Shown here piece after piece: positions 4,232 to 42,559 of a DNA stretch of 47,034 bases; position 1 is the first letter of the stretch, and every line of letters starts with the position of its first letter. Source of the DNA: a virus (taxonomy: Duplodnaviria > Caudoviricetes). A model generated the notes under the pieces. That model saw only the letters and a program-made list of their open reading frames with translations. It searched no databases and was not told the origin of the DNA. Where the stretch lies: IMG/VR virus record IMGVR_UViG_3300035670_000361, positions 1 through 47,034 of that record; one strand, given 5' to 3'. Made by a program: the position numbers and the translations under genes.

Positions 4232-5785
4232 ATGCTTGGTATGGAGATCGGTCCCTGGCTTGATGAACTAAAGACTATTGATGCGGGGAATGGCTACGGC
4301 ACTTCGACTTCTCGTTATTCATTTGCCGCCACTCGGTTAAGGTTTCCCACCATTCAAAGAGCCGGTCACGTTACCAACACTTTCTATATCGGCGAGTTTG
4401 TCTTTGCCAGTCCAGACTACGCTGTCACGGATCCCCGGTTCGCCTTCCCCACTTTCTACAGCCCGTTTGCCGGGGGTGAGACCGCTGTGGCCAATAACAT
4501 TACCATCGAGGGCGTGTCTATCGAGGTAGGCGGTACATGGTATGAGGCTCCCCCGGCGTCCTTCCCTGTGGTTATGGATCCAGCTCTGGTCCCAGGTGCG
4601 CTTCTTGCGGCAATCCCTGTTACTATCCCTGCCAACACACTCGTCACTGGGCGAGTGGCCTACACCTTCACAGGGAATTTGCCAACTGTCACCCCAAATA
4701 CTGCGATAGGACTCGGCGAAGGCAATATCGGCTCAACTTCAAGTCTTGCCGCCAAGTTGATGGATGGTAGTGCCGTTGGTAATTCAGCCGGCCACTCCGA
4801 CGTATATGCACCTTGCTTTATGGTGGCAAAAGGAGGGGATGGGAGACCCTCCTTTATCATTGTAGGGGATAGTATCGGCTACGGACAAACTTCTTCACCA
4901 GCCCAACTGTCAAGTGCCCGTGGTGAGAGCGGATACATCCCACGGGGTTTGGACGACAACGCTACCTCCCTCAGGTTGGCCTATTCCAACTTCTGCATCC
5001 CGGGGCAAAATCCAATTCAGTGGAAAACTCGAGCTAATTGGGCGAAGAAGTTGGACTTGCTGAAGATGGTCTACGACCAACATGGCGCCTGGCCCTTCGA
5101 TCAGGTGATCAGCCAGCACGGCACTAATTCCTCCACCGCTACCTATCTGGGGGCGGGCAATCTTAGAGAGAGCATGGAGACCTATTTCTCCCTGATTACC
5201 ACAGAGTGGGGCAAGCCGATTACGCAAGTCGAGATACTCGCTCGCCCAACTTCAACAGACGGATATGCTACGCTGGTCAATCAATCAGTGTCCATCTCAG
5301 CTGACTATCCCACCGGCACACTTTGGCTCTTCAATGCCGACATGGGTGGGGCGAATGGATTGGGTGACCCGGCAGCCTACTTCCGCGCCGGAGGCTATAT
5401 CGAAGACAGTATCGCTCCCTGGCGTTACGGGTCTTATGATTTGATCAATGAACGAGATAAGTTGGCAATCAGACCTTTTAGTACCACCGTCGCCTCAGCC
5501 TATACTAGCGGATCAACCATCAGCCTAACAGCTGCCCCAACACTGGGAGAGGCACTTGCCATCGGAAATACCAGTCCCTTCTATTGCTATGTAACAGCTG
5601 TTACGGGCTCCGGCCCTTATACAGTAAGTTTCGTACAGACTGGATCGACAAAGGCCATTTCCGCAGGGGAGACGGCCCGTGCAGTGCCTCATGACAGTTC
5701 GGGCTTACATCCTTCACCTCTGGCGGAAGTGGCCATCTATGCCGCCGCTATCGTGGATTGGAAGATCGCACGAGGCTGGGTATAA
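4232..5785 (+). CDS. SGNH/GDSL hydrolase-domain virion protein, putative head fibre
   Basis: Block I VGDSIGYG, block III HGTNS, block V GLHPS; beta-rich N-terminal part. Confidence 0.75.
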   Translation: MLGMEIGPWLDELKTIDAGNGYGTSTSRYSFAATRLRFPTIQRAGHVTNTFYIGEFVFASPDYAVTDPRFAFPTFYSPFAGGETAVANNITIEGVSIEVGGTWYEAPPASFPVVMDPALVPGALLAAIPVTIPANTLVTGRVAYTFTGNLPTVTPNTAIGLGEGNIGSTSSLAAKLMDGSAVGNSAGHSDVYAPCFMVAKGGDGRPSFIIVGDSIGYGQTSSPAQLSSARGESGYIPRGLDDNATSLRLAYSNFCIPGQNPIQWKTRANWAKKLDLLKMVYDQHGAWPFDQVISQHGTNSSTATYLGAGNLRESMETYFSLITTEWGKPITQVEILARPTSTDGYATLVNQSVSISADYPTGTLWLFNADMGGANGLGDPAAYFRAGGYIEDSIAPWRYGSYDLINERDKLAIRPFSTTVASAYTSGSTISLTAAPTLGEALAIGNTSPFYCYVTAVTGSGPYTVSFVQTGSTKAISAGETARAVPHDSSGLHPSPLAEVAIYAAAIVDWKIARGWV

Positions 5786-8528: not shown

Positions 8529-9191
8529 ATGACCACCAACACTGAACAGAAGTTTTCCCCACTGGACCTCAAGGAGGTTTCCGAAGAGGGCGTGTTTGAG
8601 GGCTATGCTTCAAAATTCGGTGACCGCGATCAAGGCGGTGACACGGTTATGAAGGGCGCCTTCAAGAATTCCCTGAGGATCCGCTCCTCGAAGTCGATCA
8701 AGATGCTCTGGCAGCATGACTCCTCCTATCCCATCGGGATCTGGGAGAAAGTCGAAGAGGACAGCACAGGCCTCCATGTCAGGGGTCGACTTCTTACCTC
8801 CGTCCCCAAAGCGAAGGAGGTCTATGAACTGATGAAGGCCGGGATCATCGACGGCCTCTCAATCGGCTACCGCACGATCAAGGCTCTTCGAGACGACGCT
8901 ACTGGCACTCGTCAACTGAAGGAACTTGATCTGTGGGAGATCTCGCTGGTCACTTTCCCGATGCTGACCTCAGCCACCGTTACCTCGGTGAAAGGCGATT
9001 GGACCAAACGAGACGTGGAACGTGTACTGCGAGACGCAGGCATGCCCAACGCAATGGCTGTGAAGTTGATTGCGGGCGGCTGGGATGCTGCCAATACCGC
9101 CGGCGGACAGGGCGACCCTGACGACGGGCTCAATGATCTGGCCAGACAGTTGGCTCAGATGAACGAAACCCTGAAACGGAGACTGTCATGA
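8529..9191 (+). CDS. Prohead protease (HK97 family)
   Basis: FEGYAS, MLWQHD, DGLSIGY, LWEISLVTFP. Confidence 0.97.
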   Translation: MTTNTEQKFSPLDLKEVSEEGVFEGYASKFGDRDQGGDTVMKGAFKNSLRIRSSKSIKMLWQHDSSYPIGIWEKVEEDSTGLHVRGRLLTSVPKAKEVYELMKAGIIDGLSIGYRTIKALRDDATGTRQLKELDLWEISLVTFPMLTSATVTSVKGDWTKRDVERVLRDAGMPNAMAVKLIAGGWDAANTAGGQGDPDDGLNDLARQLAQMNETLKRRLS

Positions 9192-10525
9192 AACATCAAC
9201 AATTCGCCCACCCTGCCGGTCCGCTTGAGATCAAGGATGTCACGGGTGGCTCTGGCGATGACATCAAATCGCCGGATACCATCGAGATCAAGAAAGGTCT
9301 CGACGCCTTCTCCAGGACCCTCGACGCCTTCATGAAGAAGACCGACGATGAATTGGCGGAGATCAAGAAGTCCACCGACGGCAAGACTGCCGACGCTGTG
9401 ACCCAGGCGGAGATGAAGAAACTCACCGACGCCCTTGACGAGCAGAAGAAACTGGTCGACTCGCTTCGCCTCGCGAACAATCGACCCCACCTGATGCTTG
9501 CCGACGGCACCAAGGCCCAGCTCACCGACGAACAGGTCGAGCACAAGACGGCCTTTGAGGGCTGGTTCCGCAAGGGCTCCGGTGAAGACGGACTGGGCGA
9601 ACTCCAGAAGAAGGCACTCTCGGTCGGCACGGATCCTGATGGCGGTTACACGGTTCCTGTCCAGATGGAAGCCACCATTGATCGGGTCATCACCGAGGTT
9701 TCGGAGATGCGCCAGATCTCCCGGGTCATCCAGGTCTCGACTGCTTCCTACAAGAAGCGCGTGTCCATGGGCGGCGCCTCCAGCGGCTGGGTCGGTGAGC
9801 AGTCGGCTCGCCCGAATACCAACACGCCGACCGTGGACGTTCTCGAGTTCCCGGTGATGGAACTCTACGCCAATCCCTCGGCAACCCAGTCCATCCTGGA
9901 TGACTCGGCGATCAGCATTGATCAATGGCTCGCCGACGAGGTGGCTCTTGAGTTCGCCCAGGAAGAAGGTGCAGCTTTCGTCAACGGCAACGGTGCGGCC
10001 AAGCCCCTCGGCTTCCTCCAAACCAGCAAACTCGCCAATGACAGCTGGGCCTGGGGCTCCCTCGGCTATATCGCCACGGGCGTCTCGGGCGGTTTTGCCG
10101 ACAGCTCGTCGGATCCGGGCGCCGAGACCACGAACATCGTGGATCTCGTTTATGCCCTGAAACCCGCCTTCCGCCGCAATGCTCGCTTCACCATGAACCG
10201 CAAGACGGTTTCGACCCTGATGAAGCTTCGCGACGCCGACGGCCGCCAGCTGTGGTCCTCGGGACTTCGCGAGGGTCAGCCCGACAGGCTGATGGGTTAT
10301 CCGATCCATGAAATGGAGGACATGCCCGATATCGGCGCTGACTCCTATTCCGTGGCCTTCGGTGATTTCAGCCGCGGCTACATCATCGTTGACCGGATCG
10401 GCATCCGGGTTCTCAGGGACCCCTTCTCGGCGAAGCCCTACGTCCAGTTCTACACGACGAAGCGCACGGGCGGCGGCATCGGTCACTACGAGGCCATCAA
10501 GCTGCTGAAGTTCGGCACCTCGTGA
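9188..10525 (+). CDS. Major capsid protein (HK97 fold with delta domain, GTA g5-like)
   Basis: Coiled-coil N-terminus, DGGYTVP, ELYANPSATQ, FGDF, RDPFSAKPYVQFYTTKR. Confidence 0.97.
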   Translation: MKHQQFAHPAGPLEIKDVTGGSGDDIKSPDTIEIKKGLDAFSRTLDAFMKKTDDELAEIKKSTDGKTADAVTQAEMKKLTDALDEQKKLVDSLRLANNRPHLMLADGTKAQLTDEQVEHKTAFEGWFRKGSGEDGLGELQKKALSVGTDPDGGYTVPVQMEATIDRVITEVSEMRQISRVIQVSTASYKKRVSMGGASSGWVGEQSARPNTNTPTVDVLEFPVMELYANPSATQSILDDSAISIDQWLADEVALEFAQEEGAAFVNGNGAAKPLGFLQTSKLANDSWAWGSLGYIATGVSGGFADSSSDPGAETTNIVDLVYALKPAFRRNARFTMNRKTVSTLMKLRDADGRQLWSSGLREGQPDRLMGYPIHEMEDMPDIGADSYSVAFGDFSRGYIIVDRIGIRVLRDPFSAKPYVQFYTTKRTGGGIGHYEAIKLLKFGTS

Positions 10526-28734: not shown

Positions 28735-29683
28735 TTTCGTATTCCCTTTCTTTGACGTACTCGATGTCTAGTCCCTGAAGTCTCGCCCTGCAAAGAGGTT
28801 CATAATCGCACCAAGAGCAGTGCTTGTCAATATTCATATCGGAGCACTTTCCGTGATTTTCTACCATGCTCCTGATTGTGGACTCGAAGTCCGCAAATAC
28901 CAGATCTACCACACTCCGATTGACGGGGGTATGGATGCGCTGGAAATACTCGCCCCTGTTGCTCTCGGCGGAAGCCATGAGTTGAGGGTATTGGTCCACC
29001 TCCTCTCCTCGCTCCTCAATGGTACGTTCCACAGTCGAGGGTAGCGTGTCGATCCTTTTCTGAGAGAGCGTACCATCCTTCAGGATATCCGGGATTGCCG
29101 GCGGTTTGGATTTGATGTAGTCCCACAGTACGCCATCGAGAGGCTGCCACCCCAGGATATCGTTCGCCCGGAAGTAGGTAACAGATTGCAAGTTTCGCCA
29201 GCGTTCGTCATCACCGGGTTTCCGGGTGTACGTTTTGTGCTCGACCAGCCATCTCAGTTTGTTCGGCGTCTTGGCAAGGGCATCGAGCTTACCGTTCCAG
29301 ATCACGCCGGGGAAAAGCTCAATCTCAAAGGTATGCTCGGCGCCACGATGGGCCTTCCTGATTGGACGAAGTTTGTCACCTTCCCAGAACCGAATATACT
29401 CCGCAATGATGTCCTGAGTGTCGACCAGGATATCGCCGTACTCCTCCCTTTCCTGGGCAAAGAGCTTCATGGCCTTGACGTCTTTCCGAAGCTCCTCAAA
29501 GTACCCCATGGGATCATCCCCGTTGAAGTGGCGTTCCAGGGCCTTATGGATCATCGTCCCGAATTGAAGGGGCCGGGATTTGCGCTTCTTCCTGAGCTTT
29601 TCAACATACCGGTAGTGGTACGCTTGGTGGCACCGACGGAACGTCTTCACCTTCGACTGCGATACCATGAATGGGCTGCTCAT
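28643..29683 (-). CDS. PD-(D/E)XK Cas4-like exonuclease
   Basis: SQS...RC...Y.Y.Y, FGTMIH, GKLD...VEHKT, C-terminal CSWCDYEPLC. Confidence 0.88.
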   Translation of the reverse strand: MSSPFMVSQSKVKTFRRCHQAYHYRYVEKLRKKRKSRPLQFGTMIHKALERHFNGDDPMGYFEELRKDVKAMKLFAQEREEYGDILVDTQDIIAEYIRFWEGDKLRPIRKAHRGAEHTFEIELFPGVIWNGKLDALAKTPNKLRWLVEHKTYTRKPGDDERWRNLQSVTYFRANDILGWQPLDGVLWDYIKSKPPAIPDILKDGTLSQKRIDTLPSTVERTIEERGEEVDQYPQLMASAESNRGEYFQRIHTPVNRSVVDLVFADFESTIRSMVENHGKCSDMNIDKHCSWCDYEPLCRARLQGLDIEYVKEREYESGSKGKKDDEDGEVIHRIDHSQVLASQKGK

Positions 29684-32211
29684 GCGGCTTCCTTCCATTT
29701 TTCATAGATTTCTGGTACGGTAAACTTATTCAGTGTATCAGGTAGGGACAGCTTCAGGACTTCCGCCACCTTCTTGGCCTTCCCAAGGCTAATGCCTTTA
29801 CCCCAGGGGCCGATATCACCGTCGGCCTCAATGGGAACGGTCATCTTGATATCAAACTCATCCATCAAGTCCGGCCATCTCATGATTTCCATCATTCGAT
29901 TGTAGACCTCTTCCACCATGTCATTCCGGACCCGGAACAGCACAGCGTCATGCACAGTGCCACATATCTTGACGACATTGCGACCGTATTCCTTGCGCAG
30001 CTGTATCGCAGCCATGAGGTTCACCTCGTTTGCGAACGATTGCACAGGCGAGTTGATAGCCTGGCGCTCTGCTGCTCGACGCTCAGGCGTATCCTCAGCG
30101 CTTCGTGCCTCGGGCAGTCGACGCTTGCGACCGGACAGCGACTTGACATACCCGTGGCGACGGACGTACTTCTTCTGTCGCTTGTGCCAATCGGGCAAGG
30201 CGGCGTAGTTCTCGAAGAACGTAGTACGTGAGGCTTCGGCCTCCTCATCAGTCACAGTGACGCCATAGTTGTCTCGGGCGTATATCTTGAACTTCTTCCA
30301 CCACATGCCATAGAGATAGCCAAAATTAACGGCCTTGGCTTTCTTTCGGTATTCCTTCCATTCCTTGTTTATCTCTGTGGCAATCTCATGGCCAACCTCC
30401 AATAGGAGTTTAATGGCCTCGGAATAGGGCATATCATTCTTGCCCTTAATGCGACAGGCGGTACCGATGACCAGGTCCTTAAGTCCTCCGCCTCGCTCGA
30501 TTTCACGGATGGCGGTGAGCCAGTGGACATCAATACCGTGAGTGAAGGCATGTATCATCGCCGGCTCACGAGCGAGCTCAGCGGCGATCCTCAGCTCAGC
30601 CTGCGACAGGTCACACTGAATGAGCGTCCAACCCTTCTCGGCTGATATGAGACTCCGGATGCGGGGATCCCTCGGGACTTGTTGGAGGTTAGGGTGCTCG
30701 CATGAAAGTCTTCCCGTAACAGTGCCATGTAGTTTGAATGACGGATGAAGATAATAGCCGCGTGACTGTTTGTGGAGGAAGGGCTTCCATCCGTCAATGA
30801 AGAAGGACAGCTGTTGCTTGGCTTCCCTGAACCGAAGAAGAGCCTCAGTACAAGGGTGATCCAGCCGCTTGATAACGCTCTCACTGCAGGAATAATTCCC
30901 CGCCGCCGTCTTGGGCTCGGGGCTCTTGATTTTGAGATCGACAAAGAGCAATTTGGACAATTGCTGGGATGAGCCCCAATTGAACTTCTGCTTCCTCCCT
31001 TTGGAGTCAAGGACATACTCGGGCTCCCATTCTTTGAGTTCAGCAAGTGCCTTATCATACTGATCACGAAGGACCTCCTCAGCTTCGCCGAATTGATCCA
31101 TATCAATGAAGACGCCATCGTACTCAATCTCCACAAAGAGATTTACACAGGGCATCATGATCTTGTCAAACACCCGCTTAACTTCCGGGTCAGCCAGAAG
31201 CATCTTGCCAAATACATACCGAAGCTTTCGGGTATAGTACAAGTCATGGGCAAGATACTTGCAGTGCTTCTTCAGAGGGACATTCATGCCCTGCTTCTCA
31301 GTCAGGTCGATTTCCCAGTCGGGTGCACCGCAATAAACTTGGGCCAGATATTTAAGGCCATGGCGCATATTCTCATCCAGAAGGAAGTGCGCCAGCATCG
31401 TGTCAAAATCAAGTTCCCATCGGATCCCCAGATGAACCCATGTCCACAGGAGGTCAAACTTTCCGTTGTGGGCTATGAGGACGAAGTCGTCACGGATCTC
31501 ATCGACCCGTTCCATGATCTCTATGACTTCGTCCTGTGTCCAGGGTGACTGTGGATGGTTGACCGGTATGCACCATTGGTTGCGGGCAGTGCCAAACCCC
31601 AAGCTTACTATCTTAGGAACTGGGTCCTGAACCCAGTTATTGTGCTTATCCAGGTGCTGGGTTCGCCACGGGTAGAGTTGTGAGGTCTCGATATCGTAGG
31701 AGATGGAGCCCCTGAGGTCCCTCAACATCTCCTTAACGTCATCCTCGGAAGCCACTATACGGAAGTTGAGTTCCTTTGTTTCGGGTATACCCCCGAACTT
31801 GATCATGTCATCAAGAAACTTTAGGTCCGCTTTCATCACGGCTTCTTGTTTGTCATCGTGACGGATGATCCCCGGGTTATTCATCGGCAGCAGAATGAAA
31901 TTGTCTTGCTTGAGGGGCTTGCCTCTAAGCTTGCTAATACCCGCCTTTCCAGTTAAGGCCTGAAGAGGCGTATTGCCGACTGCTACCACATACTTGAAAC
32001 CGGACAAGCTCTCTTGAAGCTCGTCCTTGGCCTGTTTGATTTCTGTCTTGGTCGCGGACTTACCGTTCTTTGGGGCGCCGGGAAGAACCGATATCCTGGA
32101 GACTTTATACCGTTCTTCCAGCGGTTCCATAATATGCTCAACGGCATCCCAGGTCCTCGCGCAATCATCGGGACTCTCAGTGACTACGGCTATTCGCTCA
32201 TGTCTCGACAA
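29680..32211 (-). CDS. polA: DNA polymerase family A with UDG-like N-terminal domain and 3'-5' exonuclease
   Basis: YDIET, HNGKFD, TGRLS..PNLQQ, DLSQAELR, KAVNFGYLYG, VHDA. Confidence 0.96.
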   Translation of the reverse strand: MSRHERIAVVTESPDDCARTWDAVEHIMEPLEERYKVSRISVLPGAPKNGKSATKTEIKQAKDELQESLSGFKYVVAVGNTPLQALTGKAGISKLRGKPLKQDNFILLPMNNPGIIRHDDKQEAVMKADLKFLDDMIKFGGIPETKELNFRIVASEDDVKEMLRDLRGSISYDIETSQLYPWRTQHLDKHNNWVQDPVPKIVSLGFGTARNQWCIPVNHPQSPWTQDEVIEIMERVDEIRDDFVLIAHNGKFDLLWTWVHLGIRWELDFDTMLAHFLLDENMRHGLKYLAQVYCGAPDWEIDLTEKQGMNVPLKKHCKYLAHDLYYTRKLRYVFGKMLLADPEVKRVFDKIMMPCVNLFVEIEYDGVFIDMDQFGEAEEVLRDQYDKALAELKEWEPEYVLDSKGRKQKFNWGSSQQLSKLLFVDLKIKSPEPKTAAGNYSCSESVIKRLDHPCTEALLRFREAKQQLSFFIDGWKPFLHKQSRGYYLHPSFKLHGTVTGRLSCEHPNLQQVPRDPRIRSLISAEKGWTLIQCDLSQAELRIAAELAREPAMIHAFTHGIDVHWLTAIREIERGGGLKDLVIGTACRIKGKNDMPYSEAIKLLLEVGHEIATEINKEWKEYRKKAKAVNFGYLYGMWWKKFKIYARDNYGVTVTDEEAEASRTTFFENYAALPDWHKRQKKYVRRHGYVKSLSGRKRRLPEARSAEDTPERRAAERQAINSPVQSFANEVNLMAAIQLRKEYGRNVVKICGTVHDAVLFRVRNDMVEEVYNRMMEIMRWPDLMDEFDIKMTVPIEADGDIGPWGKGISLGKAKKVAEVLKLSLPDTLNKFTVPEIYEKWKEAA

Positions 32212-32659
32212 AGACCAGCTCCTTCGTTCTCCAGTCCATGGTATAGCCGGCGGGCGTTATCCGATAGATGGGGAGTTCTCCCTGGATCAGGTGGTCATTG
32301 ATGCGGTAGGGGTGGGCGAAGAAAATGCGCTGGATTATGTCGCCCGATAGGATGGCCTGGAAACAGTCGAGACAGGGACTATCCGTCACGTAGAGGTCCA
32401 GCTTCCTCCTTAAATCCAGTGAGGACGGCAGATACCGAATGGCATTGATTTCGGCATGGGTAGTCTCATGACAGTGGTGCTTTCCCGGGCAGTCATTTCC
32501 CAGGCAGTGCGGGGCGCTAGGTGGCACTCCGTTGTAGCCTATGCTCACTATGCTTCGCCCCTGCACCAGGACAGCACCGACGTTGAGTCTCATGCACGTG
32601 GATCGCTTGGCAACCGTATGGGCGATTTCCATGAACATCTGTGGACGACTAGGTCTCAT
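32198..32659 (-). CDS. dCMP deaminase
   Basis: RSTC, GYNG.P, HAEINAI, SPCLDC. Confidence 0.95.
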   Translation of the reverse strand: MRPSRPQMFMEIAHTVAKRSTCMRLNVGAVLVQGRSIVSIGYNGVPPSAPHCLGNDCPGKHHCHETTHAEINAIRYLPSSLDLRRKLDLYVTDSPCLDCFQAILSGDIIQRIFFAHPYRINDHLIQGELPIYRITPAGYTMDWRTKELVFVET

Positions 32660-33201
32660 AGCCCTATGCCCCTCCTGTACTCATCGTCCAGATTATCGCC
32701 CAGTTCTCGCCACATATTCTGGACCCACTGCGCCTGAGCGTGTGCGTCGTCACCGGCGCTGTGCTTCGTGAGGGGTGCCGGCTTGTGCGCTGAAGGAGCC
32801 AGCATCGCGAGTGTGCGCGTGTCACGCAATGTCCTAAAGTCCCAAGGCTCGACGCCCAGAAGGCTCTTCAGTGTTGCGATGTCGAATGCAGGCCCGTGAG
32901 ACCAAACGCATTCGATTGTACCGTTGCTCAAGATCATCTTGAGGCGCGTGGTAAGGTAAGCGGTGGTGTACACGTCCTCGGGATCAAACACCTTCTGCCG
33001 TGCGATGTCCGGCTGTTGCATCCACCATTTGAGGGTGTCAGCGCGAACCGTTCGCCCCTTGCGAAGCTGCTCGTCAATATCGAGAGCCATCTCCACAGGA
33101 CTGTCCACGCTCTCCCTGTCGAAGATGCACCATCCCACCTGTGTAACTACGGCGGTGGTCGCCGTATCCAGGGTCTCGATGTCGATCATCATATGCTTCA
33201 T
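32656..33201 (-). CDS. DEDDh 3'-5' exonuclease (Rv2179c/DUF5051-like)
   Basis: MIDIETL, TLKWWMQQ, WSHG..FD, RDTRT, H.A.DDA; ATGA overlap gives start 33201. Confidence 0.85.
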   Translation of the reverse strand: MKHMMIDIETLDTATTAVVTQVGWCIFDRESVDSPVEMALDIDEQLRKGRTVRADTLKWWMQQPDIARQKVFDPEDVYTTAYLTTRLKMILSNGTIECVWSHGPAFDIATLKSLLGVEPWDFRTLRDTRTLAMLAPSAHKPAPLTKHSAGDDAHAQAQWVQNMWRELGDNLDDEYRRGIGL

Positions 33202-33545
33202 GGCTTCCATGCCCCCATCACGATCATTATCCCGGCGGCCCAGGCCGCGAATGACAGCAACAGAAGGAAGGGGAGGAGTCGAGTGAGACCCGGCCCCTCG
33301 GGCGTTTCTCGAATGAAAGGGTAGGAGGTTTCGATTGATATGGGGGGGTGGGTATTGCCCCAGCAATGAAACCAGACATGGCCATAAAACAGGCAGGCAA
33401 GTCGCTCACGCCACGTCATCTCCCATTTGCTGATGACCATGCCCCCCTCGGGATGACGCCAAATGGGGAGTGGGTAGACCTTGTCCCCCTGACCCTCAGG
33501 AGGTAGTAATTTGAGATTGGCCTCGGGAAACGATGACCCTTTCAT
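33198..33545 (-). CDS. Hypothetical protein with C-terminal TM helix
   Basis: ATGA overlaps on both sides. Confidence 0.7.
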   Translation of the reverse strand: MKGSSFPEANLKLLPPEGQGDKVYPLPIWRHPEGGMVISKWEMTWRERLACLFYGHVWFHCWGNTHPPISIETSYPFIRETPEGPGLTRLLPFLLLLSFAAWAAGIMIVMGAWKP

Positions 33546-34447
33546 GACTTCATTCCTTCCTTTTTCATGGCGATCATGTCATTGGCAAAGACATGAAGAC
33601 TGGTGCAGTGCATGGTAAACGTACCGGGCCTCATCTCGCCCCAGTAACCGGCCGTATTGTCCCGATTGCGACACTCGTTGAGGACCCACAGAAGCAGCCG
33701 GATGGTCAGGTAGATATCGTCCTGCATGTGGTGAAAGAAGTCGCAGGATCGAAGTGGATAGTAGACATGCAGCCTGCCACCACGCACCCAGAATTGATAG
33801 CCGAGTGAGCACGGTTTTCGACCACCGACAACTTCGCCCACATCTTCGGGATGGAAGATCGGGAACCATTCCTGACGAGAAAGGGGGTTCTTGACGAGTT
33901 GACCGACCAAGTCGTTCAGGTCACCATATTCGTTCCTGATGCCGCGGCGTACTCCCTGCTCGCGCAGGTCATAGCCAACGTCCTCGAGGAATTGCTCGTG
34001 ACTGCGCACGAACTCATCCGCCGTCTTCGTAGGTTCGGCAGCCTTGCCGGCGTACTTCGGCCAGTAGCGTTCCATGTAGTTGTGGTTGAACATCCCGTTT
34101 ATATCACGGAACTTGTCGGCACTTGTACCCCAAGGCCAGTTCGCCCATTCAACGCCGGGGTTGATCGGCGCACCACAGACGCGCTCCTCGAAGTGATTGT
34201 CGGCCCATGGCAGATTGGGTTTCACGTCCTCGCGCCAATGCTGAAGATCCTCGATGCCATCAAGCGAGTGGGTAAAGGTGTAGTTCATCAACTCATAGGT
34301 GGAGAACTCGGGTCGCGGGTCAAGTCCCTGCCAGGGCGAAGATGGAACATTGTGGGAATGGGTCAGGAATAGGTTCCATGTGTGGGCCCGGATGCGTCGG
34401 AAACTGTCCCGTCCCGACAGATAGTTAAAAGGGAGAACCTTCATCAT
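33542..34447 (-). CDS. Thymidylate-synthase-fold enzyme, probably dCMP-modifying
   Basis: SRQ, catalytic PC (RKPCSLGYQF), RSCDFFHHMQDD, SLHVF. Confidence 0.88.
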   Translation of the reverse strand: MMKVLPFNYLSGRDSFRRIRAHTWNLFLTHSHNVPSSPWQGLDPRPEFSTYELMNYTFTHSLDGIEDLQHWREDVKPNLPWADNHFEERVCGAPINPGVEWANWPWGTSADKFRDINGMFNHNYMERYWPKYAGKAAEPTKTADEFVRSHEQFLEDVGYDLREQGVRRGIRNEYGDLNDLVGQLVKNPLSRQEWFPIFHPEDVGEVVGGRKPCSLGYQFWVRGGRLHVYYPLRSCDFFHHMQDDIYLTIRLLLWVLNECRNRDNTAGYWGEMRPGTFTMHCTSLHVFANDMIAMKKEGMKS

Positions 34448-34599
34448 TTGCCCCCTCTCAGGTTCCCCCGAAGCCTTTCGGCAATTCGATGAAGATCCTG
34501 CCGACTGATGCTCCCAGCCCATTCATTCTGCTCAGCCCTGAGCAGTTCGCGGAGGGCCTTCTCCTCCGCGCTTGTTTCGGTGGTCTTATTCCTTGACAT
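34444..34599 (-). CDS. 51-aa hypothetical protein between the two TS-fold genes
   Basis: MSRNKTTETSAEEKALRELLR...; GGAGG RBS; stop/start overlaps. Confidence 0.6.
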   Translation of the reverse strand: MSRNKTTETSAEEKALRELLRAEQNEWAGSISRQDLHRIAERLRGNLRGGK

Positions 34600-35417
34600 C
34601 AGTCCTCCCCTTCCTCATCCGGGTCAATGTAATCGTCTTTCATTCCTGGGTGGTTATCCCCCACATATTCTGTTAGTTCCTCGAGCACATGGGGGTTCAT
34701 CAGCCTGTGGAACATAGTGTGGACTCTCATACCCTGGGCGTACTTTTGGATCCCGCGGTGGTACTCGGGGATAGTATACCGAGCGGTCCATTTCACACAC
34801 CATGTCCAAAAATGGGGATCGACCTTCTCGATGGCCTCAAGAGCGGCGATGGGATCGTCCAGGTTCGGCGCCAGCGTTGCGAAGTACATGGGATGCACCG
34901 TCACGTTGGCGAAGAAGAACGTCAACTTGGTCAGCGGCGCAGGATCGAAATTGAAGGGGGGCAGAAGGACATCCCTGATGAATACCAGGTCTGCCGGGAA
35001 TTTCTTGAAGACCTCGGTCGTTCGATAGAAGGCATGAGCCTCGGTTGTATGATCCCCGTGATAGGTCAGAGACATTGACTGGATACACGGCGTAAGCACA
35101 GAGGCTCGCTTGCTGCCCTTGTTAGGATCGCTCTTCGTGACGTGCCCGTGACAGGTGAAAGAAACACTCCCATACTTCCTCTGACCCAAACGCTTTTTCC
35201 ACAGTGGCACAACTGCATCCCTGGACTCCTCGACCAGATAGAGTCGTTTGAGCATGGCCATCTTGCTGTTGGTGTACCCGGCATGGGACATTTCCAAATC
35301 ATCACGAACATCCGTAAAGGTGCGGACCACGTTGCTGACGATCTTGCGGGCACCGGAAGTCTCTTGAGCCGGCGTAGCCATCATATCCAGGCAGAACCGG
35401 ATCCAATCAGACTTCAT
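34599..35417 (-). CDS. Highly divergent second thymidylate-synthase-fold protein
   Basis: TPCIQSMSL and YRTTEVFKKFPADLVFI align with the TS PC and RSxD-x7-N/D motifs. Confidence 0.6.
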   Translation of the reverse strand: MKSDWIRFCLDMMATPAQETSGARKIVSNVVRTFTDVRDDLEMSHAGYTNSKMAMLKRLYLVEESRDAVVPLWKKRLGQRKYGSVSFTCHGHVTKSDPNKGSKRASVLTPCIQSMSLTYHGDHTTEAHAFYRTTEVFKKFPADLVFIRDVLLPPFNFDPAPLTKLTFFFANVTVHPMYFATLAPNLDDPIAALEAIEKVDPHFWTWCVKWTARYTIPEYHRGIQKYAQGMRVHTMFHRLMNPHVLEELTEYVGDNHPGMKDDYIDPDEEGED

Positions 35418-35691
35418 CGGGAACTCCCAGCTGCTTTCGGATGTTCTCGATTTGGCCGACAAACGTAGCGGCGGCCAGGAACAGCTGTTTTTTCTGATCC
35501 CATTGGGGATCGCGCCTCATCGCCAAGAAGACCTGAGGGTGGATCACTGCTCCGGCCCCTTCAAAGAAGTTGGTCTGGTCGATCAGGTGTTGCCAGTCGA
35601 ATGTACCGAGCAGCTGACAGGCAGATTGCACGGCACTCATAGCCATGTGCATGTCCCCCTCAGTCTCGATCTGCTTTTTGTTCAGGTCCAT
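35407..35691 (-). CDS. Hypothetical protein (94 aa)
   Basis: GGGAG RBS; first gene after an internal promoter. Confidence 0.7.
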   Translation of the reverse strand: MDLNKKQIETEGDMHMAMSAVQSACQLLGTFDWQHLIDQTNFFEGAGAVIHPQVFLAMRRDPQWDQKKQLFLAAATFVGQIENIRKQLGVPDEV

Positions 35692-35709
35692 AGTTGTTCT
35701 CCCGCGTGT

Positions 35710-35738
35710 ATCATACTCAATCCGAAAGTTGAGTGCAA
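35710..35738 (-). promoter_or_regulatory. Internal promoter upstream of the TS-fold pair
   Basis: TTGCAC-17 nt-TATGAT; ACTCAA...TTGAGT inverted repeat spans the spacer. Confidence 0.55.
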
Positions 35739-35749
35739 CGCCGTTTGTC

Positions 35750-36427
35750 TTACGCTCTATCGAAGTGGGGTTGGTGGATGTCGTTTTCCTCGACCAGGTC
35801 AGTGTGCGACGGCTTTTCCCAGCCGGCGGGTTTCACCACGTCGAGCGACGAACCTCGTTTGCTTTGAGTATCGAGTTCAGCTCGGACCTTCTGCATGTTG
35901 GCGACATGGACACGACGCCATGCTTCCGCGAAGACGGTCCCGAAACCATGAAGATGAACGGTGCCGAACAGAACGTAGGCCAGATCCACCATACCATCGA
36001 GAGCTTCTTCCAGATGGAAGGTATAGTTCGCGGCATCCCTCGCCATAAGATTGTGGGTCGTCTCGTTATACGCGGCACACTGGTGCTTCCACCACTCATC
36101 CAGTTCCTCTTGAAGGAACTTGCGGCGGAACTCCATGGTCTCCTTGTCGAGTGCGCCCATCGTAGTTGGTGCTGGTAGATCGAACTTGTCATGGAACTCG
36201 GCGATATCTCGCAACGGGTTGAATGGCTGGGCCTCGACCACTTCACCGATGCACTGGAAACGCCCATCGAAGAACTCATCATACGGTCGAGCAATCAATT
36301 CGCCGTCTGGGTCGCCATGACGCTGATAGATGACCGCATTCTCCCATGTGGCTTCGATCTTCCCCCTGGTCGAAATGACTTCGTAGACATGACCGGTTTT
36401 CTTGTGAAGGTATAGCCTATTTGGCAT
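35750..36427 (-). CDS. MazG-like (PRA-PH/dimeric dUTPase-type) dNTP pyrophosphohydrolase with DUF1653-like N-terminal domain
   Basis: LQEELDE, EALDGMVDLAYV, VH.ANM.K, VKPAGW; N-terminal Y.HKK.G..YEV...VIY...ARP..EF. Confidence 0.82.
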   Translation of the reverse strand: MPNRLYLHKKTGHVYEVISTRGKIEATWENAVIYQRHGDPDGELIARPYDEFFDGRFQCIGEVVEAQPFNPLRDIAEFHDKFDLPAPTTMGALDKETMEFRRKFLQEELDEWWKHQCAAYNETTHNLMARDAANYTFHLEEALDGMVDLAYVLFGTVHLHGFGTVFAEAWRRVHVANMQKVRAELDTQSKRGSSLDVVKPAGWEKPSHTDLVEENDIHQPHFDRA

Positions 36428-36905
36428 TGCAGTACTCCCTGCAGGCTTGAATGATGGGTTCGATCTCATCGCCGATCTCATAGCGATAGTCCGCATGAAC
36501 TGCCGCCCAAACCCTGTAGGCGGCTCGGATTTGATGGTCGAAGCGTTCGATCATCCCCACATGCTCAGGCGTGTCATAGTCCTTGAGTTCATGGCCCTTG
36601 TCAAGGCCACGGTTGTTGTCGCAAAAGATAATGAGTGGCTTCCTCGCATAGAACTCATCCAGTACATCCTGTGGGATCATCGTCGCCCCTTCACGAAACC
36701 GCCCATAGATTGGTTGCGAGGTCACGGGATGCCTGTCAAACAAACAGTTGTCCATCCGGAGATATCGACGGGCCCTTTCCACGATCTCACCTTTATATTG
36801 TTCGGGCCCCCGTCCGGGCGTGTACATCAAGGGAACGTGTTGCGCAATCATATGCGCGAGTGTCGATTTACCCGATCCATCGGGGCCTTCGAGCACGATA
36901 TTCAT
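36417..36905 (-). CDS. dNMP kinase (thymidylate-kinase-like)
   Basis: IVLEGPDGSGKSTL, FDRH..SQPIYG. Confidence 0.85.
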   Translation of the reverse strand: MNIVLEGPDGSGKSTLAHMIAQHVPLMYTPGRGPEQYKGEIVERARRYLRMDNCLFDRHPVTSQPIYGRFREGATMIPQDVLDEFYARKPLIIFCDNNRGLDKGHELKDYDTPEHVGMIERFDHQIRAAYRVWAAVHADYRYEIGDEIEPIIQACREYCNAK

Positions 36906-36920
36906 TGGAAGCCTTTCACA

Positions 36921-36970
36921 GTTGACTATCGCATTTGACCAGTTTAATGTCAAGTCACACCACTGTCAAC
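36921..36970. promoter_or_regulatory. Divergent control region with two tandem leftward promoters
   Basis: Minus strand TTGACA-17-TAAACT (36969-36941) and TTGACA-17-GATAGT (36953-36925); four TTGAC half-sites. Confidence 0.7.
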
Positions 36971-39183: not shown

Positions 39184-39597
39184 TCAGCGCTTCGCTGTGC
39201 GTCGCTCAGCAGCCTCGCTCAGGCGTGTCGCAATGCGCTCGCGATTGATCCTGAGTGCGTGACGTGTAGGCGTGTAGTCGTTGAATAGCCGGCGGGGAGC
39301 CTTCATGAAATCAGCTCGTGATTTCTCAGGGTTGTATTGAACTTTGAACCCACGACGAAGACACTCGCCATATAGGTCGAACTGGCGGTTGAAGCAGAAC
39401 AACAGCTTGTTGTAGAAGAAGCGAACATGACCGGAGCCGAGCACGTATTCGTCTGGGATGTCTTCTGCATGTTTACCAGCTCGACACTTGATATCCCACT
39501 TCCAAGCCAACTCGAATACACGAGGCAGCTCACGATACTCAGCGAGCAGATGCTTGTCGGTGAGCTCGGTGACGGGGACGACATTGATACGGGTCAT
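39184..39597 (-). CDS. denV: Pyrimidine-dimer DNA glycosylase (T4 endonuclease V family)
   Basis: MTRIN...L...HL.AEYRELPRVF, LG.GHV.FFY.K. Confidence 0.97.
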   Translation of the reverse strand: MTRINVVPVTELTDKHLLAEYRELPRVFELAWKWDIKCRAGKHAEDIPDEYVLGSGHVRFFYNKLLFCFNRQFDLYGECLRRGFKVQYNPEKSRADFMKAPRRLFNDYTPTRHALRINRERIATRLSEAAERRTAKR

Positions 39598-41704: not shown

Positions 41705-41874
41705 CTTAGTCCTTTCTTGCCACAGGATCGGCAAACCCCGGTCTTCGTTTTGAGGTTGATGTTGGACCACCGGTTTCGCTTCAGTGCCTCTTCGGGCTTG
41801 TCATGCGGATTTATTTTCAGCTCCCTATCACAGGACCTGCAAGTGGCGGCTACTACGGTTTTATTTTTGGCCAT
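41701..41874 (-). CDS. 57-aa zinc-finger protein (below the ORF-track cutoff)
   Basis: MAKNK...CRSC...CRSCGKKGLR; ATGA overlap. Confidence 0.6.
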   Translation of the reverse strand: MAKNKTVVAATCRSCDRELKINPHDKPEEALKRNRWSNINLKTKTGVCRSCGKKGLR

Positions 41875-42559
41875 ATCTCAAGACCTTGGCTGCATCTGGA
41901 TTGAGGACTCTTCCGCTCACTCGCCGATAGGCATTGAATACCACATGCCCGATTCTGCTGCGGCTGTCCCGGTAAATCTTGGTGTTGGAGCTCATGACTG
42001 CCAGATAGGCTTCTCGCCAATCCCCGAAAGCTATCTCCCCCTCCTCATCCAACTCAGAGCTGATAAACAGGGGATATCCAGCTAGCCTTCCCGGAACTCC
42101 CCAACACGGGGCAGCTTGGTGTAGGAACCGGCCGCAGCTATCCTTCAGGTTCTTGACGGTCCTCTCCGTCTTGGCGGAAATCACAAAGGTTCCCCTTTGA
42201 CGATACTCCGGAGGCAGCATGTAGATCAGGTCCACAATCGAGTCGACGGTCAACTCCTCAGCCGACAATCCGTCATAGGCGTTCGGCTTGAGTATGTGTC
42301 CCAGAAAGAGCTTGTCCTCCCTCTTCCGGAAACTGGACTCTATCTCCTCCTCTATAGAGGCGGCTACTTTCCTTGCCGAGAAGGAGCACAGGAAACGCAG
42401 TGGCTTTATCACTGTGGTTTCCGATGATCCCTCTGGAGTCCAATCCGTAAGCTGTGTACTTCCCAGCTGCCTCATAAGAGAGGGGACGTACTGATTGACT
42501 ACTGGCAAATCAGCTCTGCCATCGGGCCCCTCAGTATAGAAGGTGTGGTCAACCATCAT
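41861..42559 (-). CDS. Shortened paralog of the HK97-fold major capsid protein
   Basis: IVDLIYMLPPEYR, LKDSCGR, RLAGYP, IAFGDW, YRD align with the C-terminal half of the MCP at 9188-10525. Confidence 0.85.
   Translation of the reverse strand: MMVDHTFYTEGPDGRADLPVVNQYVPSLMRQLGSTQLTDWTPEGSSETTVIKPLRFLCSFSARKVAASIEEEIESSFRKREDKLFLGHILKPNAYDGLSAEELTVDSIVDLIYMLPPEYRQRGTFVISAKTERTVKNLKDSCGRFLHQAAPCWGVPGRLAGYPLFISSELDEEGEIAFGDWREAYLAVMSSNTKIYRDSRSRIGHVVFNAYRRVSGRVLNPDAAKVLRYGQK

Follow-up and report, generated by a model that had tools for sequence, protein, structure and literature searches.

A conserved phage cassette with two thymidylate synthase-fold proteins, one of them a candidate DNA-level cytosine-modifying enzyme

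The window analyzed here, 47,034 bases of DNA that form a complete virus record (IMGVR_UViG_3300035670_000361), belongs to a siphophage with gene transfer agent (GTA)-like tail genes, and its minus strand carries an operon with two divergent members of the thymidylate synthase (TS) fold, which we call A and B. The A/B cassette is real, conserved and undescribed in the literature covered, although the cassette type itself is known. We tentatively favor a division of labor, one that taken whole falls somewhat short of even odds, in which A makes a C5-substituted deoxycytidine monophosphate (dCMP) and B, relying on a Cys, carries out a further C5 step on cytosine already in DNA. The broader claim that DNA is the substrate of B in one way or another, which this reading shares with one of the rivals weighed below, is slightly better than an even bet.

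Two divergent TS-fold proteins

Protein A (33542-34447, minus strand, 301 residues) is a TS homologue of an uncharacterized clade; it passes the PF00303 cut-off (E 1.6e-7) and belongs to the TS family. Its model (predicted local distance difference test score, pLDDT, 90.6) gave 396 Foldseek matches at E<=0.001, and the rows listed are all TS family. The catalytic Cys, Arg166 and His207 of the TS superfamily are invariant across an alignment of 73 dereplicated clade members and two outgroups (75 rows), in which A residues R210, C213, D236, H240, D243 and D244 fall at TS positions 143, 146, 169, 173, 176 and 177. The original prediction held that both proteins have Asp where E. coli ThyA has Asn177, and this is so in every row of the A alignment (75/75, the two outgroups included) and of the B alignment; neither protein has the Asn177 of a canonical ThyA, which converts dUMP to dTMP, and the TS-like motifs of both read as that prediction quoted them. 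Compared with L. casei TS, A likewise has Asp at the Asn229/Asn177 position, and its best sequence match in the PDB is the N229D mutant 1njc. Elsewhere in the active site the clade has Arg143 and His173 (73/73 each), Asp169 (one Glu), Ser/Thr147 and Asp/Asn176, its folate-site residues are remodeled, and A His85 probably stands for Glu58; together with His240 and Asp243, His85 may form a site for a cofactor or metal. The published code, in the accessible portion of its source, assigns Asp177 to dCMP, Asp/Glu143 to non-methyl products and Asn169 to hydroxylases (PMC13326640); A has Asp177 only. In three loci (L043, L049 and L061), the A beside B branches deeply (29% identity), still has Glu at the column of His85 and is without the WP motif; this is possibly an ancestral state or an enzyme with another product.

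Protein B (34599-35417, minus strand, 272 residues) consists of a TS core (residues 1-187) followed by a basic helical domain (188-256). Searches of Pfam, PHROGs and the PDB with its sequence found no match, nor did two narrow-profile hhalign comparisons of B with the A alignment. A broad B profile did align: 73 columns matched a TS profile in register with the TS core (E 7.6e-5), against controls in which the best of 7 unrelated profiles reached E 0.01 and the best of 40 block shuffles E 0.021. With a B model from 130 homologues (pLDDT 93.6), the top 7 of 48,161 chains in a VIA search are all TS family, matched over residues 1-187 (Z 13.3-9.5; next row 5.3), and Foldseek returned 222 matches at E<=0.001; the best viral structural match is a PMBT14 hypothetical protein (template modeling score 0.77). 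The nearest named ESM Atlas matches are PF00303 clusters (score 0.94), which are a lead only, the family being named on 10% of members. The earlier claim of a TS fold for B is thus upheld by the structure-model matches and the broad-profile alignment, and on its model B is placed in the TS/dCMP hydroxymethylase fold.

Residue counts for B come from 179 rows, which are partly redundant. B residues C111, R132, E135 and D143 correspond to TS C146, R166, D169 and N177; Cys111, Tyr60 and Asp143 are invariant (179/179), and Arg132 (178), Lys52 (176), Glu135 (171) and Lys/Arg139 (169) nearly so. With Cys, Arg and Asp so nearly invariant, a purely structural role without catalysis is unlikely for B. 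At the same time, TS position 143 is Met, Gln or Phe, the folate-side positions are altered (Lys at 173, Ala at 176), and the His207/Tyr209 pair that binds the 3'-OH is missing, with Thr173/His175 at those columns by profile alignment and residue 175 being Ser or Asn in 63 rows. The added helical domain has a median net charge of +5. A, T4 gp42 and the Xp12 TS are acidic and B is basic: its median isoelectric point (pI) is 9.2-9.3, with values above 8 in 45/50 and 118/130 proteins, against a median of 6.3 and 8/75 for A.

The two genes travel together. The 18 phage records matched by B (14 distinct phages) are the top 18 of A's 404, and A follows B in 60/61 B loci (not dereplicated), the remaining locus lying at a contig edge with A at the record's other end; the proposed check of co-occurrence therefore came out in favor of the pair in 18/18 phage records and 60/61 loci. 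The kinase-dNTPase-B-A-deaminase-PolA cassette is widespread, occurring in PMBT14, Serbin, Strzyga, Gordonia phages, Zuko and Muddy. In actinophages the same slot holds a distant B (Zuko gp75, HippoPololi gp45), weak on the first profile and joining on iteration, that keeps the Cys, Arg and Asp; HippoPololi gp45 leads to 85 phage records, 68 from Gordonia and 9 from Mycobacterium, including Muddy. Mycobacterium phage Muddy (L155) carries the full kinase-dUTPase-B-A-deaminase-PolA cassette as genes 45-49, of which gene 47 (B) and gene 45 (deaminase) are annotated hypothetical. The B family as a whole numbers 805 proteins at 90% clustering and 297 at 50%, annotated hypothetical only. In one relative (L046:2408-3241), B is only 43% identical to that of the window though the rest of the locus is 56-88% identical, which reads as an exchange of B alone.

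A methyltransferase-like gene in the place of B

The best 80 of 142 A loci include 62 with B, 4 cut at a contig end and 14 without B, or 12 distinct B-less loci once two duplicates are removed. A PF00145 gene, homologous to the C5-methyltransferases, lies within 5 kb upstream of A in 11 of these 12 and elsewhere in the record in the twelfth. A whole-record profile search found B in 0/12 of the B-less records, 5 of which have a completeness of 90% or more, and recovered 5/5 positive controls; the converse whole-record search found the methyltransferase-like gene in 0/47 B records and recovered 3/3 controls, the twelfth record included. B and the methyltransferase-like gene are mutually exclusive in A-clade phages. 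On the A tree, which is a quick one with its search unfinished, the methyltransferase-partnered state needs 4 changes, of which strong branches force 3, and B is present in the deepest branches; the swap from B to methyltransferase thus appears to have arisen at least three times, and at least three lineages have kept A but not B.

Cysteine is retained at the catalytic position of the methyltransferase-like proteins. These carry PECG; DDL mostly takes the place of ENV, and in 8 of the 9 aligned the motif X Asn is a Lys. The protein of L139 is the sole aligned one with ENL and Asn, and has no ligase within 5 kb. M.MpeI reportedly offers a precedent for Asn-to-Lys at the motif X position. Among cultured phages the clade has no close member (best 25% identity). 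A ligase of the GATase plus Asn-synthase type, like CmoY, is present in 8 of the 12 loci. In the accessible text on the CmoA/CmoX/CmoY system of Synechococcus phage S-B43, CmoX carboxymethylates cytosine in DNA, modifying about 10% of C, at GC sites, and an Arg at the motif X Asn position binds carboxy-S-adenosylmethionine (Cx-SAM) (PMC12783734). The stand-in for B is likewise homologous to C5-methyltransferases; it has a basic residue where CmoX binds Cx-SAM and is often adjoined by the Asn-synthase-like ligase. The CmoX set, however, needs SPPC and Arg350, in place of which the B-replacing proteins have PECG, DDL and Lys; the main text of that paper, so far as accessible, names no TS (PMC12783734), and the window is without any genes of this type.

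The methyltransferase-like gene (PECG, DDL, motif X Lys) stands upstream of A in uncultured phages (L086, L099, L103, L109, L122, L133, L139, L143, L144, L147 and L148), in loci that often also hold the GATase plus Asn-synthase ligase and an N6/N4-methylase-like gene; judged by these genes, they are a probable carboxymethyl- or carbamoylmethyl-cytosine system outside the published CmoX definition. One such locus is headed by a UDG-like domain fused to a thymidylate-kinase-like domain (L086:9-929).

We believe that the swap bears directly on the substrate of B. A single slot is filled alternately by two unrelated folds, each of which uses a Cys to attack C6 of cytosine. Since the replacement for B comes from a family of enzymes that work on DNA, we take the B step to be likely at the DNA level as well. 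The alternative of two sequential steps on the mononucleotide, which the original prediction had offered, would have either A or B make a C5-substituted dCMP and the other convert it, with phosphorylation to a new dCTP analogue to follow. All solved TS-fold relatives do act on mononucleotides, B sits between the pyrophosphatase and A in 60/61 loci, it retains Arg166 and Asp177 together with an acidic residue at 169, and its Lys52 and near-invariant Lys139 could bind an anionic co-substrate. Yet this scheme leaves unexplained both the replacement of B by a gene of a DNA methyltransferase fold and B's basic extra domain and lost 3'-OH-binding pair; the swap points instead to a DNA-level step, and we regard two mononucleotide steps as unlikely, if far from negligible.

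Pairwise-distance correlations over 58 dereplicated loci speak to the partnership of A and B themselves. B follows PolA (rho 0.81) and the nuclease (0.80), against 0.34 for A-B, and the partial correlations are 0.42 for B-PolA and 0.15 for A-B; A's best correlate is the deaminase (rho 0.40, partial 0.25), and it has no close partner. With B basic and its distances following PolA and nuclease, and A following nothing closely, A looks like an exchangeable nucleotide-level enzyme and B like a DNA-level C5 enzyme. In a TS, the active sites are shared by the two subunits, and the original prediction therefore offered, as one option, a heterodimer of A and B that acts as a single dCMP-modifying enzyme; that the two genes are adjacent and often translationally coupled would fit. 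We consider this improbable, and an obligate heterodimer is disfavored by the correlations and by the lineages in which A lives without B: A with the same invariant residues occurs without B in 12 records, in L046 A is 67% identical but B only 43%, and in L043, L049 and L061 A is 29% and B 42-46% identical.

Known systems and the case against the favored reading

Homologues of TS have given rise to four phage bases: methyl-, hydroxymethyl- and hydroxycytosine, and hydroxymethyluracil. By its residues, A would represent a fifth active-site signature beyond theirs, and the methyl, hydroxymethyl or hydroxy product at first envisaged finds none of the corresponding Xp12, T4 or RB69 signatures in A. 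The 5mdCMP cassette of Xp12 and PaMx74 resembles that of the window in its Asp177 TS, PRA-PH-type pyrophosphatase, PF00383 deaminase and nearby PolA. It has, however, a single TS with canonical-like G173/Y176/H207/Y209, a dihydrofolate reductase (DHFR) and no B, whereas A has R143, H173 and D176, DHFR is mostly absent from the A/B phages, and the window's deaminase is only 32-35% identical to theirs; A thus shows neither the close kinship, nor the canonical folate site, nor the DHFR partner of an Xp12-type 5mdCMP synthase. T4 gp42/gp1/gp56, like the window, combines a TS-fold dCMP enzyme with a kinase and a dNTPase, and its second step is also at the DNA level, through glucosyltransferases; in the window, the candidate for that step also has the TS fold. 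T4 gp42 has Asp143, and the Arg143 of A and Met/Gln/Phe of B depart from the pairing of Asp177 with Asp/Glu143 in T4-type 5hmdCMP synthases.

The closest solved fold to B is the flavin-dependent dCMP hydroxylase of the RB69/DLP3/HY126 group (AfhB, 9iqc/9iqu; for HY126, Z 13.3 with 180 residues aligned at a root-mean-square deviation of 3.7), an earlier example of a TS-fold enzyme that has changed its cofactor. The D169N diagnostic of 5hodCMP synthases (RB69/DLP3/RL38JI) is absent from A, with Asp, and from B, with Glu, and unlike those phages the window has no arabinose or glycosyltransferase genes. A 303-residue gene beside the CHI14 hydroxylase was considered as a B homologue and rejected (E 1.2).

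A more conventional account is that of an ordinary 5mC or 5hmC phage, in which 5mdCMP or 5hmdCMP comes from A alone and B, an accessory, does no chemistry on cytosine. MetaGPA work, so far as its text is accessible, ties the TS(Asp177)-PRA-PH-deaminase-PolA neighborhood to modified cytosine (bioRxiv 10.1101/2024.12.05.627091; PMC8670742), and 5 of 7 tested TS made 5mdC (bioRxiv 10.1101/2024.12.05.627091). To this extent the originally proposed cytosine-modification pathway stands, its cassette type matching one tied to modified cytosine, though its heterodimer is not favored. But A is remote from the Xp12 and T4 enzymes (hidden Markov model E 2e-7 and 5e-7; long branches on the tree) and has none of their 143/173/176 residues, the nearest characterized sequence to its profile, the CHI14 TS (E 4e-13), is still remote, and the catalytic set of B is invariant; we think the ordinary account very doubtful. 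The literature covered, mostly open-access, holds no account of B or of a two-TS cassette, although A-clade enzymes may have been assayed elsewhere, and no base chemistry for PMBT14, Serbin, Strzyga, Muddy or the Gordonia members; the accessible text on MD02, PMBT14, Strzyga and Muddy likewise holds no base-composition data.

Under the favored reading, A would add a non-reduced C5 group to dCMP, hydroxymethyl-like or new, since a methyl group would oxidize folate and DHFR is mostly absent: it exceeds the cut-off in 1/35 B records (one more weak) and 0/5 methyltransferase records, with matches in Xp12 and PaMx74. This scarcity fits a non-reductive or folate-free A reaction. The kinase would raise the A-made nucleotide to the triphosphate, the pyrophosphatase and deaminase would trim dCTP/dUTP and feed dUMP, and PolA would incorporate the product. 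B, whose binding to DNA is predicted from charge, residue loss and gene replacement, would then flip out the base, attack C6 through Cys111 and add or exchange the C5 group, filling the role predicted for the C5-methyltransferase-like enzyme in the sister phages, and the DNA so modified would be protected from restriction.

Several observations weigh against this reading. A lacks the Asp/Glu143 that the accessible part of the source ties to hydroxymethyl products (PMC13326640). The solved structure closest to B is that of a mononucleotide enzyme, the window's own B has a pI of 6.5, due to an acidic tail (net +5 over 1-250), and Lys/Arg at B 80-81 (K or R at 81 in 116/179) may partly keep the Arg126/127 phosphate clamp. 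A's low correlations could stem from a poorly resolved A tree and not from exchange, a far-diverged B could have been missed by the whole-record search, and the retained Cys of the methyltransferase-like proteins fits attack on plain cytosine better than on an A-made base. In the window, moreover, CGATCG occurs once against 17 expected and ATCGAT 0 times against 14, and near-absent C-containing 6-bp palindromes number 0-10 (median 5.5) in 8 B genomes and 2, 2 and 0 in Xp12, PaMx74 and JWX, the last of which we take to be a 5mC phage; the sample is small, at 40-50 kb per genome. Avoidance is stronger in the B phages than in these three Xp12-type phages, which argues against full replacement of C by a blocking, bulky base and for a partial or non-blocking modification. 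Dinucleotide and 4-mer biases revealed no shared target motif. In Serratia phage Serbin (L003), GATC is wholly absent from 16 kb.

Selective site avoidance favors parallel jobs over full replacement: B, or the methyltransferase-like gene, would alkylate unmodified C at a subset of sites in replicated DNA, and A and the deaminase would serve the nucleotide pool, which might mean converting dCMP to a thymidine-type nucleotide or recycling a modified dCMP, its carboxylate perhaps bound by Arg143. A's correlation with the deaminase and the partial modification by CmoX agree with this, as does the conversion of 5mdCTP to dTTP by Xp12-type deaminases in the accessible MetaGPA text (bioRxiv 10.1101/2024.12.05.627091). 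The scarcity of DHFR, the remodeled folate site of A and the ThyX that adjoins A in one methyltransferase record (L087) do not, and we judge this scheme quite unlikely.

The operon and its place in phage biology

Kinase, pyrophosphatase, orf94, B, orf51, A, orf115, exonuclease, deaminase, PolA, nuclease and Sak4 follow one another on the minus strand, with start and stop codons of the cassette genes overlapping or abutting. Open reading frames (ORFs) and Pfam/PHROG matches bear out the gene set and places originally listed, a list that had omitted the 94- and 115-residue ORFs. The deoxynucleoside monophosphate (thymidylate-kinase-like) kinase (36417-36902, 161 residues; phrog_761, E 5.3e-11) has homologues in 49/61 B loci by BLASTP, and the all-alpha dNTP pyrophosphatase of DUF1653 plus PRA-PH/MazG-like type (35750-36427; PF01503 E 4e-6, PF07866 E 0.002) in 51/61, with annotated dUTPases in its place in Serbin, HippoPololi and Muddy. 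The dCMP-deaminase-family protein (32198-32659; PF00383 E 5e-19) is found in 58/61 loci and the family A DNA polymerase, PolA (29680-32211; PF00476, PF01612), in 56/61. The 94-residue ORF (35407-35691; no family in Pfam/PHROGs), the 51-residue ORF (34444-34599), the 115-residue ORF with a hydrophobic C-terminus (33198-33545; phrog_25433) and the Rv2179c-like DEDD 3'-5' exonuclease (32656-33201; PF16473 E 6e-29) were rejected as core parts and are accessory, occurring in only 10, 7, 12 and 8 of the 61 loci. Glycosyltransferase, carbamoyltransferase, TET, DNA methylase and DHFR genes were not found among the scanned window ORFs, the first of these as originally stated.

The candidate internal promoter for orf94-B-A (TTGCAC-N17-TATGAT, 35710-35738, minus strand), also put forward earlier, keeps its TTG and TA...T in 9/9 aligned close relatives, although it lies under the threshold of a consensus scan, which placed two better sites upstream of the kinase; these overlapping sigma70-like candidates (36925-36969, minus strand) have 10/12 consensus matches each. 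The spacer of the internal promoter (35712-35731, minus strand) contains an inverted repeat, ACTCAA...TTGAGT, with other imperfect palindromes there in relatives, possibly an operator. Elsewhere in the window are a second, partial major-capsid-like gene on the early-gene strand (41861-42559, minus; PF05065, phrog_10; the capsid gene proper is at 9188-10525), a 517-residue lysophospholipase/esterase-like gene between terminase and portal (4232-5785, plus; phrog_8480) and a DenV-like pyrimidine dimer glycosylase (39184-39597, minus) present in only 5/61 related loci. GAATC/GATTC, presumably the CcrM site, is strongly avoided (z -11), which suggests an alphaproteobacterial host.

Regardless of the specific chemistry, the residues and gene neighborhoods described here suggest that the A/B phages modify cytosine, with a fair chance of a new base. 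More speculatively, and with slightly less confidence than the mechanism itself, B may be the first TS-fold enzyme to act on DNA, a base-flipping, Cys-dependent cytosine C5 transferase interchangeable with the SAM/Cx-SAM C5-methyltransferase fold; A and B together would then give hundreds of phage lineages, those of Muddy, PMBT14, Serbin and the Gordonia group among them, a cytosine not yet described. The A/B group includes the therapeutic mycobacteriophage Muddy, whose escape from some restriction is consistent with modification, though not proof of it; in the accessible text, a strain that Muddy infects restricts phage BPs through a type I system (PMC11604996). The question is cheap to settle, as cultured members grow on laboratory hosts. 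Should B indeed work on DNA, it would be a new C5-labeling enzyme, and it would overturn the rule that the TS fold handles mononucleotides.

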